Notes under the pieces: generated by a model
Database searches by the model: none
Told to the model about the DNA's origin: nothing
Seen by the model: only the letters and a program-made list of their open reading frames with translations
Assembly: GCF_046105845.1 (NCBI RefSeq)
Contig: NZ_CP151004.1
Length of the DNA: 64,000 nucleotides
Direction: 5' to 3' (one strand)
Source: Escherichia coli
Lineage (GTDB): Bacteria; Pseudomonadota; Gammaproteobacteria; Enterobacterales; Enterobacteriaceae
Part shown: positions 17,701 to 60,478 of the stretch, one piece after another
How the letters are laid out: each line of letters starts with the position of its first letter
Numbering within the stretch: position 1 is the stretch's first letter
Program-made: the position numbers and the translations under genes

Positions 17701-18584
17701 GTGATTCAACACAGTCATCACCTTTCCCGACAACGGGACGCATTAACTTCCGTGGCTGGCCGGACGCACAAATACGATGCGCAGAGTGCTGGTTCTGGGG
17801 GCAAAAATTCGGGCGCATTGACAGTGATATCACCATTTCTGGCAATACATTAACGCTGACTAATGGACTGATTGATACTGGTTTTTCGCGGCTCACTGCC
17901 GATGGTGAATGGGTTAACAATCCGGGAAATGAACGCACCTCGCTGAAAGGAAAACTGCGCGGGCAGAAAATTGATGCCGCCGCAGAATTTTTTGGTGTCA
18001 CGACGCCCATACGCCAGTCGTCATTTAATGTGGATTACGATTTACACTGGCGCAAAGCACCCTGGCAACCAGATGAGGCGACGTTGAATGGCATCATTCA
18101 TACTCAACTGGGCAAAGGCGAAATTACCGAAATCAATACCGGACATGCCGGGCAATTGCTGCGCTTATTGAGCGTTGATGCCCTGATGCGTAAGCTGCGT
18201 TTTGATTTCAGAGACACCTTTGGTGAAGGGTTCTATTTTGACTCCATTCGCAGCACCGCGTGGATTAAAGACGGCGTTATGCACACCGACGACACGCTGG
18301 TGGATGGCCTGGAAGCGGACATTGCCATGAAAGGGTCGGTAAATCTGGTGCGTCGCGACCTGAATATGGAAGCGGTTGTCGCACCAGAGATTTCTGCGAC
18401 GGTGGGCGTGGCTGCGGCTTTTGCGGTTAACCCCATTGTTGGAGCGGCAGTATTTGCAGCCAGTAAAGTGCTGGGGCCGCTGTGGAGCAAAGTCTCTATT
18501 TTGCGCTATCACATTTCGGGTCCGCTGGACGATCCGCAAATCAACGAAGTGTTGCGCCAACCGCGTAAAGAAAAAGCGCAATGA
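14784..18584 (+). CDS. yhdP: AsmA-like envelope protein YhdP (phospholipid transport)
   Basis: 1266-aa ORF with an N-terminal signal anchor; GTG start 6 nt after an AAGGAG Shine-Dalgarno. Confidence 0.93.
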   Translation: MRRLPGILLLTGAALVVIAALLVSGLRIALPHLDAWRPEILNKIESATGMPVEASQLSASWQNFGPTLEAHDIRAELKDGGEFSVKRVTLALDVWQSLLHMRWQFRDLTFWQLRFRTNTPITSGGGNDSLEASHISDLFLRQFDHFDLRDSEVSFLTPSGQRAELAIPQLTWLNDPRRHRAEGLVSLSSLTGQHGVMQVRMDLRDDEGLLSNGRVWLQADDIDLKPWLGKWMQDNIALETAQFSLEGWMTIDKGDVTGGDVWLKQGGASWLGEKETHTLSVDNLTAHITRENPGWQFSIPDTRITMDGKPWPSGALTLAWIPEQDVGGKDNKRSDELRIRASNLELAGLEGIRPLAAKLSPALGDVWRSTQPSGKINTLALDIPLQAADKTRFQASWSDLAWKQWKLLPGAEHFSGTLSGSVENGLLTASMKQAKMPYETVFRAPLEIADGQATISWLNNDKGFQLDGRNIDVKAKAVHARGGFRYLQPANDEPWLGILAGISTDDGSQAWRYFPENLMGKDLVDYLSGAIQGGVADNATLVYGGNPQLFPYKHNEGQFEVLVPLRNAKFAFQPDWPALTNLDIELDFINDGLWMKTDGVNLGGVRASNLTAVIPDYSKEKLLIDADIKGPGKAVGPYFDETPLKDSLGATLQELQLDGDVNARLHLDIPLNGELVTAKGEVTLRNNSLFIKPLDSTLKNLSGKFSFINGDLQSEPLTASWFNQPLNVDFSTKEGAKAYQVAVNLNGNWQPAKTGVLPEAVNEALSGSVAWDGKVGIDLPYHAGATYNVELNGDLKNVSSHLPSPLAKPAGEPLPVNVKVDGNLNSFELTGQAGADNHFNSRWLLGQKLTLDRAIWAADSKTLPPLPEQSGVELNMPPMNGAEWLALFQKGAAESVGGAASFPQHITLRTPMLSLGNQQWNNLSIVSQPTANGTLVEAQGREINATLAMRNNAPWLANIKYLYYNPSVAKTRGDSTQSSPFPTTGRINFRGWPDAQIRCAECWFWGQKFGRIDSDITISGNTLTLTNGLIDTGFSRLTADGEWVNNPGNERTSLKGKLRGQKIDAAAEFFGVTTPIRQSSFNVDYDLHWRKAPWQPDEATLNGIIHTQLGKGEITEINTGHAGQLLRLLSVDALMRKLRFDFRDTFGEGFYFDSIRSTAWIKDGVMHTDDTLVDGLEADIAMKGSVNLVRRDLNMEAVVAPEISATVGVAAAFAVNPIVGAAVFAASKVLGPLWSKVSILRYHISGPLDDPQINEVLRQPRKEKAQ

Positions 18585-18658
18585 TTTGACGAGGGCGCGT
18601 AATTGCCCCAATCTCATATGATAATCGTTGCCAAAGGCCAACGAGCCAGAACATAACC

Positions 18659-18692
18659 GTAGGCCGGACAGGGCGTTCACGCCGCATCCGGC
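18659..18692. repeat. REP (repetitive extragenic palindromic) element, single unit
   Basis: GTAGGCCGGACAGGGCGTTCACGCCGCATCCGGC, a near match to the E. coli REP consensus, in the yhdP-tldD intergenic region. Confidence 0.8.
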
Positions 18693-18724
18693 AGCCGTAA
18701 AAAATCCTCTACTGCAGTAACTAA

Positions 18725-20185
<1,461 letters not shown>

Positions 20186-20236
20186 TAATTTCAGTATTTT
20201 CAGAAGGATAATTAATCCTTTTACGTGCACGAACGG

Positions 20237-20270
20237 TCCCCTCGCCCCTCTGGGATTAGGGTGAGGGGAA
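20237..20270. terminator. GC-rich hairpin between convergent tldD and aaeR (probable bidirectional terminator)
   Basis: TCCCCTCGCCCCT...AGGGTGAGGGGA stem-loop in the 127-bp gap between two convergent stops; weak U-tracts. Confidence 0.45.
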
Positions 20271-20312
20271 CCCGTTGGCACAGGTTTGTACAACGTAACA
20301 GTATAATATTAA

Positions 20313-21242
20313 TTACTTCTCTTTCCCGCGCCCGTGCATCTCCTGAAACAATTTACCGACCTCAACAAAATAATCCGTTAGCGAGTTGATCACGACTTGT
20401 ACCTTCAGCGGCAGCTTATCTTTTTCGGTATATAACGCATAAACCGGGCGTGGATCTGACTGGTAACGTGGCAGCAGGATCTCCAGCTCCCCGCGATTGA
20501 TCTCGTTGATCACCCACATCAGCGGCACGTAGGCGATCCCAGCGCCTGCAGTCAGCCAGCGCACCAGCGTCATCGGATCATTAGTCACAAATCTCCCTTG
20601 CGGGATCAGGCGAGTCGAGATCCCTTCCGGTGCGATCAGTTCAAATTCATTGTCGGGTCGCACGCTGTATTCAAGCCATGAATGACTACTTAAATCGGCG
20701 GGTTTTTCCGGTATGCCGTATTGTGTGAGATAGCTTTTCGCGGCGCACACCACCATTGGCATCGCGCCCAGACGGCGGGAAAACAGGCTGGAATCCTGCA
20801 ACGCGCCGACGCGGATCACCACATCCAGACCATCGGCAATCAGGTCGGGGGCAGGAATTCCGGTAACCAGATTGACGCTCAAACCTGGGTATTCTTTCAG
20901 CATTTTTGCTGTCAGCCCGGCGAGAACATTTTGTGCCATAGTTGAAGAACAGCCAATGCGCAGCGTCCCGATGGGGGTGTTATTGAAGGCATACAGTTGC
21001 TCATGAACATCCTGCACTTCATGGAGCATCCGACGGCAGCCCTGGTAGTAAATTCTGCCGGCTTCAGTCAGGCCAATGCTGCGTGTACTACGGTTTAACA
21101 GCTTTACCTGTAACTCATCTTCCAGTTTTGACACCGTCTGACTGATGGACGAAACGCTCATCTGTAGCTGTCTGGCGGCGGCGGTAAAAGAGCCAAATTC
21201 AACTACTTTGGCAAACACCGACATGCGTTTTAGTCGTTCCAT
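20313..21242 (-). CDS. aaeR: LysR-family transcriptional activator of aaeXAB
   Basis: 309-aa ORF with an N-terminal helix-turn-helix, recognised as AaeR (YhcS); divergent from aaeX. Confidence 0.92.
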   Translation of the reverse strand: MERLKRMSVFAKVVEFGSFTAAARQLQMSVSSISQTVSKLEDELQVKLLNRSTRSIGLTEAGRIYYQGCRRMLHEVQDVHEQLYAFNNTPIGTLRIGCSSTMAQNVLAGLTAKMLKEYPGLSVNLVTGIPAPDLIADGLDVVIRVGALQDSSLFSRRLGAMPMVVCAAKSYLTQYGIPEKPADLSSHSWLEYSVRPDNEFELIAPEGISTRLIPQGRFVTNDPMTLVRWLTAGAGIAYVPLMWVINEINRGELEILLPRYQSDPRPVYALYTEKDKLPLKVQVVINSLTDYFVEVGKLFQEMHGRGKEK

Positions 21243-37186: not shown

Positions 37187-38080
37187 ATGGCAACGAATTT
37201 ACGTGGCGTAATGGCTGCACTCCTGACTCCTTTTGATCAACAACAAGCACTGGATAAAGCGAGTCTGCGTCGCCTGGTTCAGTTCAATATTCAGCAGGGC
37301 ATTGACGGTTTATACGTGGGTGGTTCGACCGGCGAAGCCTTTGTACAAAGCCTTTCCGAGCGTGAACAGGTACTGGAAATCGTCGCCGAAGAGGCGAAAG
37401 GTAAGATTAAACTCATCGCCCACGTCGGTTGTGTCAGCACCGCCGAAAGCCAACAACTTGCGGCATCGGCTAAACGTTATGGCTTCGATGCCGTCTCCGC
37501 CGTCACGCCGTTCTACTATCCTTTCAGCTTTGAAGAACACTGCGATCACTATCGGGCAATTATTGATTCGGCGGATGGTTTGCCGATGGTGGTGTACAAC
37601 ATTCCTGCCCTGAGCGGGGTAAAACTAACCCTGGATCAGATCAACACCCTGGTTACGCTGCCTGGTGTCGGCGCGCTGAAACAGACCTCTGGCGATCTCT
37701 ATCAGATGGAACAGATCCGTCGTGAACATCCTGATCTGGTGCTCTATAACGGTTACGACGAAATCTTCGCCTCTGGTCTTCTGGCGGGCGCTGATGGTGG
37801 TATCGGTAGTACCTACAACATCATGGGCTGGCGTTATCAGGGGATTGTGAAGGCGCTGAAAGAAGGCGATATCCAGACCGCGCAGAAGCTGCAAACCGAA
37901 TGTAATAAAGTCATTGATTTACTGATCAAAACGGGCGTATTCCGCGGCCTGAAAACGGTCCTGCATTATATGGATGTCGTTTCTGTGCCGCTGTGCCGCA
38001 AACCGTTTGGACCGGTAGATGAAAAATATCTGCCAGAACTGAAGGCGTTGGCCCAGCAGTTGATGCAAGAGCGCGGGTGA
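37187..38080 (+). CDS. nanA: N-acetylneuraminate lyase
   Basis: 297-aa ORF recognised as NanA (DHDPS-family aldolase). Confidence 0.95.
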
Positions 38081-38085
38081 GTTGT

Positions 38086-38119
38086 TTCCCCTCGCTCGCC
38101 CCTACCGGGTGAGGGGAAA
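38086..38119 (+). other. GC-rich hairpin in the nanA-nanT spacer, related to the tldD-aaeR hairpin
   Basis: TTCCCCTCGCTCGCCCCTACCGGGTGAGGGGAA; shares TCCCCTCGC...GGGTGAGGGGAA with the element at 20237-20270. Confidence 0.5.
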
Positions 38120-38188
38120 TAAACGCATCTGTACCCTACAATTTTCATACCAAAGCGTGTGGGCATCGCCCACCGCGGGAGACTCACA

Positions 38189-39679
38189 ATGAGTACTACA
38201 ACCCAGAATATCCCGTGGTATCGCCATCTCAATCGTGCACAATGGCGGGCATTTTCCGCTGCCTGGTTGGGATATCTGCTTGACGGTTTTGATTTCGTTT
38301 TAATCGCCCTGGTACTCACCGAAGTACAAGGTGAATTCGGGCTGACGACGGTGCAGGCGGCAAGTCTGATCTCCGCAGCCTTTATCTCTCGCTGGTTCGG
38401 CGGCCTGATGCTCGGCGCTATGGGTGACCGCTACGGGCGTCGTCTGGCAATGGTCACCAGCATCGTTCTCTTCTCGGCCGGGACGCTGGCCTGCGGCTTT
38501 GCGCCAGGCTACATCACCATGTTTATCGCTCGTCTGGTCATCGGCATGGGGATGGCGGGTGAATACGGTTCCAGCGCCACCTATGTCATTGAAAGCTGGC
38601 CAAAACATCTGCGTAATAAAGCCAGTGGTTTTCTGATTTCCGGCTTCTCTGTGGGGGCCGTCGTTGCCGCTCAGGTCTATAGCCTGGTGGTTCCGGTCTG
38701 GGGCTGGCGTGCGCTGTTCTTTATCGGCATTTTGCCAATCATCTTTGCTCTCTGGCTGCGTAAAAACATCCCGGAAGCGGAAGACTGGAAAGAGAAACAT
38801 GCTGGTAAAGCACCAGTACGCACGATGGTAGATATTCTCTACCGTGGTGAACATCGCATTGCCAATATCGTAATGACACTGGCGGCGGCTACTGCGCTGT
38901 GGTTTTGCTTCGCCGGTAACCTGCAAAATGCCGCGATCGTCGCTGTTCTTGGGCTGTTATGCGCCGCAATCTTTATCAGCTTTATGGTGCAAAGTACGGG
39001 CAAACGCTGGCCAACGGGCGTAATGCTGATGGTGGTCGTGTTGTTTGCTTTCCTCTACTCATGGCCGATTCAGGCGCTGCTGCCAACGTATCTGAAAACC
39101 GATCTGGCTTATAACCCGCATACTGTCGCCAATGTGCTGTTCTTTAGTGGCTTTGGCGCGGCGGTGGGATGCTGCGTAGGTGGCTTCCTCGGTGACTGGC
39201 TGGGAACCCGCAAAGCGTACGTTTGTAGCCTGCTGGCCTCGCAGCTGCTGATTATTCCGGTATTTGCGATTGGCGGCGCAAACGTCTGGGTGCTCGGTCT
39301 GTTACTGTTCTTCCAGCAAATGCTTGGACAAGGGATCGCCGGGATCTTACCGAAACTGATTGGCGGTTATTTCGATACCGACCAGCGTGCAGCGGGCCTG
39401 GGCTTTACCTACAACGTCGGCGCATTGGGCGGTGCACTGGCCCCAATCATCGGCGCGTTGATCGCTCAACGTCTGGATCTGGGTACTGCGCTGGCATCGC
39501 TCTCGTTCAGTCTGACATTTGTGGTGATCCTGCTGATTGGTCTGGATATGCCTTCCCGCGTTCAGCGTTGGTTGCGCCCGGAAGCATTGCGTACTCATGA
39601 CGCTATCGACGGCAAACCATTTAGCGGTGCCGTGCCATTTGGCCGCGCCAAAAACGATTTAGTCAAAACCAAAAGTTAA
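38189..39679 (+). CDS. nanT: sialic acid:H+ symporter
   Basis: 496-aa MFS transporter ([19 protein letters not shown]...) starting at the internal ATG. Confidence 0.94.
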
Positions 39680-60366: not shown

Positions 60367-60478
60367 CCCCGGCTAGACCGGGGTGCGCGAATACTGCGCC
60401 AACACCAGGGAAATCTTGGCTGCGCCGTAAATTATTATGATGAGTTACAAGGGCACAGCACTGTTTTTCAGGCCGCAC
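60358..60478 (-). ncRNA. arcZ: Hfq-dependent sRNA ArcZ (RyhA/SraH)
   Basis: The minus-strand sequence GTGCGGCCTGAAAAACAGTGCTGTGCCC...CACCCCGGTCTAGCCGGGGTCATTTTTT matches ArcZ as I remember it, with its terminator hairpin and U6; its 3' end overlaps the arcB stop codon. Confidence 0.9.

Follow-up and report, generated by a model that had tools for sequence, protein, structure and literature searches.

Two palindromes in intergenic spacers

The window, by which we mean the whole 64-kb stretch of Escherichia coli DNA analyzed here, contains two short GC-rich palindromes, both of which are intergenic on the open reading frame (ORF) map. On the plus strand, yhdP ends at 18584 and is followed by tldD (ORF 18740..20185, 481 aa; annotated as tldD in K-12 and other strains), the stop codon of which occupies 20183..20185. 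The convergent gene aaeR, identified from annotation (ORF 20313..21242 on the minus strand, 309 aa), has its stop codon at 20313..20315. The first palindrome lies between these two genes, starting 51 nt after the tldD stop codon and ending 42 nt before the aaeR stop codon. The second lies on the plus strand in the spacer that separates nanA (ORF 37187..38080, 297 aa, by annotation; stop codon at 38078..38080) from nanT, the start codon of which is at 38189..38191, and it begins 5 nt after the nanA stop codon. An initial annotation had placed both palindromes directly after stop codons, which is accurate for the nanA copy but not for the tldD copy. The window also carries the gene for the ArcZ small RNA (60371-60478, minus strand; Rfam RF00081, 120.8 bits, E = 4e-27), which is unrelated to the palindromes.

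Positions 20237-20270 read TCCCCTCGCCCCTCTGGGATTAGGGTGAGGGGAA in the window, and positions 38086-38119 read TTCCCCTCGCTCGCCCCTACCGGGTGAGGGGAAA. Both strings had been quoted at these positions before, the nanA string in a form that is one A short of its interval. The two elements have the arms CCCCTCGC and GGGTGAGGGG in common, which amounts to 18 specified bases that match exactly, and these arms are separated by 13 nt in the tldD copy and by 11 nt in the nanA copy. A spacer of 12 to 18 nt, as originally proposed for a search motif, would thus miss the nanA copy. When the spacer was set to 8 to 26 nt (CCCCTCGC-N(8-26)-GGGTGAGGGG), exactly two matches were found in the 64 kb, at 20238-20268 and 38088-38116 and both on the plus strand, and none was found in 100 dinucleotide-preserving shuffles of the window. 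No further copy or half-copy of the element was detected in the window. The predicted RNA fold of the tldD copy has a free energy of -34.4 kcal/mol (z = -3.6) on the plus strand and -31.3 kcal/mol on the minus strand, and that of the nanA copy has a free energy of -32.3 kcal/mol (z = -5.1) on the plus strand and only -19.1 kcal/mol (z = -1.0) on the minus strand. With two matches in the window against none in 100 shuffles, together with strong folds, the pair of related palindromes with shared ends is therefore real and not a product of chance, as the initial annotation had held.

Neither palindrome is a REP element, which also agrees with the first description: the REP consensus (GCCGGATG.GGCG-type palindrome) has no match at either site. 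The only REP-like match in the window, found with the consensus CG[CT]C[GT]CATC[CA]GGC, lies near 18680 in the yhdP-tldD spacer (18585-18739). At the gathering threshold, Rfam returned nothing at the elements. The sub-threshold Rfam matches seen in the E-value scans (Antizyme_FSE, mir-3179, and GlsR7) are to eukaryotic families and were rejected as chance.

The BoxC family

BoxC is a palindromic repeat of E. coli described in work of the 1990s; Maher and co-workers gave it the name PIT (potential intrastrand triplex) in 2000, and Holder et al. named it TMECO (Holder et al. 2015, NAR 43:10126, PMC4666352). An intact BoxC has three blocks: CCCTC(G/T)CCC(C) comes first, a loop leads on to GGG(G)AGAGGG, and a linker of TTA or CCG leads on to GGG(G)TGAGGG(G). 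Copies with T-T-A as their second loop are type A, and those with a CCG linker are type B (PMC4666352). The catalogue for K-12 MG1655 lists 23 copies (PMC4666352, Table 1), which lie upstream of ORFs more often than downstream. The same authors described "degenerated TMECO" alleles and raised variability at TMECO loci, attributed the instability to the three-block form, applied the term "palindromic effect" to pairs of TMECOs that collapse into stable stem-loops, and reported the three-block motif across phyla (PMC4666352). The circular dichroism (CD) and nuclear magnetic resonance (NMR) evidence for an intrastrand purine-motif triplex in single-stranded DNA concerns the intact motif only (PMC4666352).

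The initial annotation had suggested a genome-wide search for further copies and had supposed that the two palindromes belong to a small dispersed family resembling terminators. The repeat family is indeed dispersed, but it is neither small nor new, being BoxC/PIT/TMECO. Copy number in E. coli was taken from BLAST against 5426 complete genomes and from the published K-12 table. A 71-nt query consisting of the full O157:H7 allele of the tldD-aaeR element matched 96,226 places in 5425 of the 5426 genomes (median per genome, 19; range, 2 to 35), alongside the 23 copies catalogued in K-12. The similarity between copies extends beyond the core of 34 to 37 nt. Type-A copies are preceded by a 5' flank of the approximate form G(C/T)GCAC.A.CGGTC, which is found at nine type-A copies, the tldD copy among them, and at one Pseudocitrobacter copy. 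In the type-B copies TMECO 1 and TMECO 18, as in the nanA copy (TTT...AAA), the 5' flank is rich in T and the 3' flank is rich in A.

A motif scan of 100,044 species genomes gave at least 139 matches in very diverse bacteria, with at least 120 loci in other phyla. Among the matches listed, most spacers were 18 to 26 nt long, and nearly all of those that were read had the three-block form. About five, again among the matches listed, had spacers of 6 to 9 nt and the two-block form, and simple two-block hairpins occurred sporadically in the GC-rich genomes of Streptomyces, Corynebacterium, and Chloroflexi. The three-block matches in diverse phyla agree with the cross-phylum distribution of Holder et al. 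Although nearly the same 36-nt sequence is met with in different phyla, the surroundings of the core differ among these genomes. In Pseudomonas sp. dw_612 (loci L025-L044), the three-block core forms the 3' end of a longer repeat, with at least 90 nt of upstream flank highly conserved and a unit of about 140 nt. In a Gemmataceae metagenome-assembled genome (MAG) (L082-L127), the core alone is conserved, in dozens of copies, and in a Bradyrhizobium MAG (L050-L055), a further palindromic module, likewise conserved, lies after the core.

The element between tldD and aaeR

On the plus strand of the window, the tldD copy can be read as a whole BoxC unit, an extended imperfect palindrome at 20225..20281 in which the flanks GTGCACGAACGG and CCGTTGGCAC pair around the core in the RNA fold. 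Its type-A 5' flank, GTGCACGAACGGT (20225..20237), is the same flank that precedes eight other type-A copies in K-12 and the one in Pseudocitrobacter. Block 1, the pyrimidine block CCCCTCGCCCC (20238..20248), has exactly the sequence listed for this block in the TMECOs labeled "A mm" (PMC4666352, Table 1). It is followed by the loop TCT and by GGGA, a block 2 remnant from which 6 nt are missing according to strain alignments and an nhmmer gap of the same length (together 20249..20255). The TTA linker at 20256..20258 marks the copy as type A. Block 3, the purine block GGGTGAGGGG with an AA flank (20259..20270), pairs directly with block 1 in this allele.

A BoxC at the same locus is already in the published catalogue. 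K-12 TMECO no. 14 has the sequence CCCTCGCCCCTTTGGGGTGAGGGTTAGGGTGAGGGG at 3,390,494-3,390,529 (PMC4666352, Table 1), which places it between aaeR (ending at 3,390,449) and tldD (ending at 3,390,583) in NC_000913.3. The window and the K-12 spacer align end to end, with a 6-nt gap in block 2 and point changes in the loop and in the block 2 remnant. A profile built from the other 22 K-12 TMECOs gave a full-model match at 20239-20268 (E = 0.0017, nhmmer) with the same 6-nt gap in block 2. Judged by this alignment and the shared position, the tldD-aaeR copy is the ortholog of K-12 TMECO no. 14.

The locus is polymorphic. Among the sampled strains, O157:H7 and K-12 carry full-length alleles, with GGGGAGAGGG as block 2 in O157:H7 and GGGGTGAGGG in K-12. 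The window, UM146, and A34 carry the allele lacking 6 nt of block 2; CUVET18 has a different 6-nt deletion, which truncates block 3, and 2020S05-235 lacks 12 nt. All sampled alleles form a hairpin of -32 to -36 kcal/mol, and the hairpin is kept because block 1 can pair with either purine block. Across E. coli, the 127-nt tldD-aaeR spacer is at least 99% identical to that of the window in 151 genomes and falls in the 90 to 95% band in 4031. In a rough breakdown by identity bands, made with the full allele as the query, full alleles account for about 2040 genomes, the 6-nt-deletion classes for about 3170, and more extensive losses for about 550.

Two further features of this spacer were recorded. 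In O127:H6 "EPEC1" (NZ_LT903847.1, L007:469-500), an IS4-family element sits inside the tldD-aaeR BoxC, immediately after CCCCTCGCCCCTCTGGGGTT. The insert bears the annotation ISEc13-family transposase. As the strain was engineered from enteropathogenic E. coli (EPEC), the insertion may be nonnatural. The terminal sequence of the insert, CTGTCTCTTGATCAGATCT, resembles the IS50 inside end. In the window, an AT-rich hairpin (AAGGAT-AATTA-ATCCTT, followed by TTTAC) lies at 20203-20226, 18 nt past the tldD stop codon. It has two G-C pairs only and is consequently not called by the terminator scan, and the K-12 version has ATCTTT in place of ATCCTT as its 3' arm, which would leave a G-U pair. This hairpin is a weak terminator at best.

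The element between nanA and nanT

The nanA copy is an intercistronic hairpin at 38082..38122 on the plus strand, with 17-nt arms and a 7-nt loop (inverted repeat I6 and the fold), and it is read here as a BoxC relic without block 2. Comparison with the K-12 type-B copies and with a collapsed allele of TMECO-18 identifies a block 1 with an internal 4-nt duplication, CCCCTCGC(TCGC)CCC, at 38088..38102, preceded by a T-rich flank at 38085-38087. The interval 38105..38119 comprises the CC(G) linker that defines type B (38105-38107), block 3 (GGGTGAGGGG), and an AAA flank. Read from end to end, the layout is that of a type-B copy without block 2, namely, a T-rich flank, CCCTCGC(TCGC)CCC, TA, CCG, GGTGAGGGG, and AAA. 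The element is identical in K-12, and over 141 nt it is at least 99% identical in 5390 of 5408 E. coli genomes, the common variant having a T run of different length where the stem begins. It is absent from the 23-member K-12 list (PMC4666352).

The BoxC core profile does not match the nanA copy significantly (E = 2.9), so its membership in the family rests on synteny, flanks, and one natural analog. The analog came from a search with a 51-nt query covering the nanA hairpin, which matched 6906 places in E. coli; the nanA locus accounts for 5408 genomes, leaving about 1500 extra places. The one extra match that was inspected is the lldD-trmL TMECO-18 locus of strain ExPEC (L128:1496-1530), where the element, which has the full three blocks in K-12, is reduced by collapse to CTCCCTCGCCCCTCCGGGGTGAGGGGAAAA. 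The 4-nt duplication and two substitutions separate the nanA element from this allele, and the two have the T-rich 5' flank, the CCG linker, and the A-rich 3' flank in common; the BLAST match between them has an E value of 0.9 in 28 Gb. If the remaining extra places are alike, about one-quarter of E. coli genomes carry a collapsed TMECO-18.

The orthologous spacers of related genera were compared by pairwise affine-gap alignment, as MAFFT misaligned the repeats. In Pseudocitrobacter faecalis, the nanA-nanT spacer contains two full BoxC copies, an inverted pair of type A and type B, and the 3' flank AAACGCATC and the sequence downstream of it are common to the E. coli nanA copy and the second Pseudocitrobacter BoxC. 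The Kluyvera spacer contains a degenerate single BoxC. On these comparisons, the nanA-nanT element appears to be a BoxC relic of type B that lacks block 2. A NanR operator or other protein site was considered and dropped, as we found no evidence for one and the element lies 3' of nanA.

The two window copies thus differ in what remains of the middle block. The tldD copy has intact blocks 1 and 3 and only GGGA of block 2, and the nanA copy has blocks 1 and 3 with no block 2 between them. Both are BoxC derivatives and not intact members of the family.

A second small hairpin, GTGGGC-ATC-GCCCAC, lies in the same spacer at 38155-38177 (core stem 38159-38173), directly ahead of the Shine-Dalgarno sequence (GGGAGA) and the start codon of nanT. 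It reads ATGGGCACAGCCCAT in Salmonella, with both sides changed and the pairing kept, GTGGGCGCAGCCCAT in K. aerogenes, where a change on one side gives a G-U pair, and GTGGGCACAGCCCAC in Superficieibacter, where only the loop is changed. The K-12 Rho region coordinate 3,372,577 falls just 3' of it. This conserved hairpin may be a translational or processing element for nanT.

Transcription across the elements

The description of the palindromes as terminator-like was examined against their flanks and against published 3' end maps, and it did not hold. No U tract follows the stem of either element on either strand; on the plus strand the stems give way to AACCCGUUGG and AAAUAAACGC, and on the minus strand to CCGUUCGUGC and AACAACUCAC. 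A scan for consensus terminators called nothing at either element. 3' end mapping was the check suggested in the initial annotation. Among the curated Term-seq 3' ends for K-12, obtained under three conditions (Adams et al. 2021) and checked over 3,390,3xx-5xx and 3,372,5xx-6xx, none lies at either element. That data set has no entry for tldD, aaeR, or nanT, and its sole nanA entry is internal to the ORF (3,373,531); it covers the K-12 alleles, growth in LB or in M63 glucose (in which the nan operon is poorly induced), and curated dominant 3' ends. The supplements of the SMRT-Cappable-seq and TERMITe papers likewise contain no entries for nanA, nanT, tldD, or aaeR.

Rho-dependent termination regions are recorded beyond both elements. 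One, at 3,390,148 on the minus strand of K-12 and antisense to aaeR (score, 5.99; P = 5.5e-18; Adams et al. 2021), is about 345 nt farther along the tldD strand than the BoxC, which means that transcripts continue across the element. The other, at 3,372,577 on the minus strand, is located 3 nt upstream of the nanT start codon, at the nanA/nanT junction (score, 2.10; P = 6.2e-5; Adams et al. 2021), and is the only entry, a Rho region call, in the coordinate ranges checked. The 3' end counts at this position were 164 upstream and 58 downstream without bicyclomycin (BCM) and 205 upstream and 152 downstream with BCM (Adams et al. 2021). The nanATEK-yhcH operon was kept among the 390 operons that remained after removal of those with an intergenic intrinsic-terminator motif, and it is not among the 47 differentially decaying operons (Dar and Sorek, PLoS Genet 2018). 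Most likely, neither element terminates transcription.

Proposed origin and alternative explanations

Taken as a whole, these observations are best explained if both elements are decay products of BoxC, a reading that we consider quite probable. Given that block 1 is complementary to both purine blocks and that blocks 2 and 3 form near-identical direct repeats 13 nt apart, we infer that slippage or deletion between the G runs could remove all or part of one purine block, and the product would be a simple hairpin of block 1 and block 3. At tldD-aaeR, the window strain would carry such an allele, with block 2 shortened by 6 nt, at a BoxC locus that is catalogued and polymorphic. A collapse of this kind would have taken place earlier at nanA-nanT, and its product would now be fixed in E. 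coli. The starting point there may have been a single type-B copy or an inverted pair of type A and type B like that of Pseudocitrobacter; the pairwise spacer alignment fits both the loss of block 2 from one copy and the removal of the center of an inverted pair. At both loci, the direction of change is open to one objection, namely, that conversion with another copy as donor could in principle regenerate a full allele. Both elements are transcribed, the one as part of the tldD 3' region and the other within the nanA-nanT spacer, and their transcripts would form GC-rich stem-loops that no U tract follows. Any effect at the RNA level, such as a block to 3' exonucleases after downstream Rho termination, would be a putative by-product, and the elements would otherwise be without function. 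The ability to form a triplex is expected to be lost without block 2.

Two alternatives concern what the palindromes are. Bidirectional terminators are common between convergent genes, the tldD copy lies between such genes, and both elements are very stable GC-rich stem-loops located 3' of a gene, all of which would suit a terminator-like repeat family that ends the tldD and nanA transcripts. Against this stand the lack of a U tract on both strands, of a consensus terminator, and of a curated K-12 Term-seq end, the readthrough of tldD transcripts to the Rho region at 3,390,148, and the cotranscription of nanA and nanT in an operon that passed the filter for intergenic intrinsic terminators. 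In addition, PIT elements showed neither promoter nor terminator activity in the experiments of Maher and co-workers as summarized by Holder et al., and the K-12 copies are found more often upstream of ORFs (PMC4666352). The terminator reading is thus already largely refuted, and we regard it as highly improbable. The nanA-nanT hairpin could instead be an independent GC-rich stem-loop that resembles BoxC by convergence, leaving the tldD copy as the only BoxC. The nonsignificant core profile, the weak E value of the BLAST match to a BoxC site, and, among the matches listed, the sporadic two-block hairpins of unrelated GC-rich genomes are what such convergence would produce. It would not readily produce 18 exact bases in a pattern that none of the 100 shuffles contained, type-B flanks together with a CCG linker, a sequence so close to a collapsed allele that is demonstrably derived from BoxC, or the full and degenerate BoxC copies that occupy the orthologous spacer of Pseudocitrobacter and Kluyvera with flanking sequence in common. 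Convergence is accordingly an improbable account of the nanA copy.

A different alternative accepts the BoxC origin and concerns function. A REP hairpin in malE-malF protects the upstream mRNA. By analogy, the nanA hairpin might have been co-opted as a barrier to 3' exonucleases that acts after Rho-dependent termination or endonucleolytic cleavage downstream, thereby stabilizing the nanA segment and setting the NanA:NanT ratio. The hairpin core is nearly invariant in E. coli, in contrast to the highly polymorphic BoxC at tldD; folding is strong on the mRNA strand only; and the hairpin is situated just upstream of the weak Rho region at the nanA/nanT junction. Stem-loops of different families also lie directly after the nanA stop codon in most of 10 other genera: BoxC in Pseudocitrobacter and Kluyvera, REP-type palindromes in Citrobacter enshiensis, Enterobacter, Trabulsiella, Superficieibacter, and probably Yokenella, and other palindromes in Klebsiella aerogenes and Salmonella. 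The near invariance of the nanA hairpin and the presence of stem-loops after nanA in nearly every genus examined could reflect selection for function, and the site (loci L129-L134 and L136-L138) marks either a hot spot for insertion or convergent selection that favors a stem-loop. Hairpins that protect mRNA and have no U tract are, moreover, the common mechanism of differential operon decay (Dar and Sorek, PLoS Genet 2018). In that study, however, the nan operon was analyzed and was not among the differentially decaying operons, and the K-12 Term-seq lists give no dominant 3' end for the hairpin. Nor should selection be needed to keep a two-block hairpin genetically stable, given that Holder et al. 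trace instability to the three-block form (PMC4666352), and REP and BoxC elements accumulate in intergenic spacers generally. Co-option is in our judgment unlikely, though worth keeping in mind. We think it rather doubtful that the nanA hairpin has been domesticated and works with the weak Rho region as a 3' end-protecting stem-loop that tunes the ratio of lyase to transporter; if it has, the need for a stem-loop would explain why unrelated palindrome families occupy the same position after nanA.

Returning to the reading of both elements as decayed BoxC copies, the window offers an internal contrast: the tldD locus, which retains a remnant of the third block, is highly polymorphic, whereas the two-block nanA relic is essentially fixed. 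This contrast agrees with the claim that the three-block form, and not the hairpin, drives instability (PMC4666352). The finding is an ordinary one in that the BoxC family, the tldD-aaeR locus, its instability, and the decay into simple hairpins have already been published. For annotation, it means that BoxC or BoxC relic, and not terminator, is the proper label for GC-rich palindromes of enterobacterial spacers that have the arms CCCCTCGC...GGGTGAGGGG.

Comparison with known systems

The two elements resemble intrinsic terminators in being GC-rich stem-loops downstream of a gene. Unlike terminators, they have no 3' U tract and no mapped 3' end, and transcripts read through them to Rho-dependent regions.

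A closer likeness is to the REP/BIME (PU) repeats, which are also dispersed intergenic palindromes, often found 3' of genes and inside operons, that form hairpins without a U tract. Their sequence family, however, is unrelated to that of the window elements. REP mobility is linked to RAYT transposases; to our knowledge, no mobilizing enzyme is known for BoxC.

The system that the elements match in sequence is BoxC/PIT/TMECO. They differ from the intact repeat in that the window copies have no intact middle purine block and thus would not adopt the proposed three-strand fold, being plain hairpins. In block 1, linker, block 3, flanks, and intergenic location they are like BoxC, the tldD copy corresponding to locus no. 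14, and the strain-to-strain instability and the decay to simple stem-loops are as described for TMECOs (PMC4666352).
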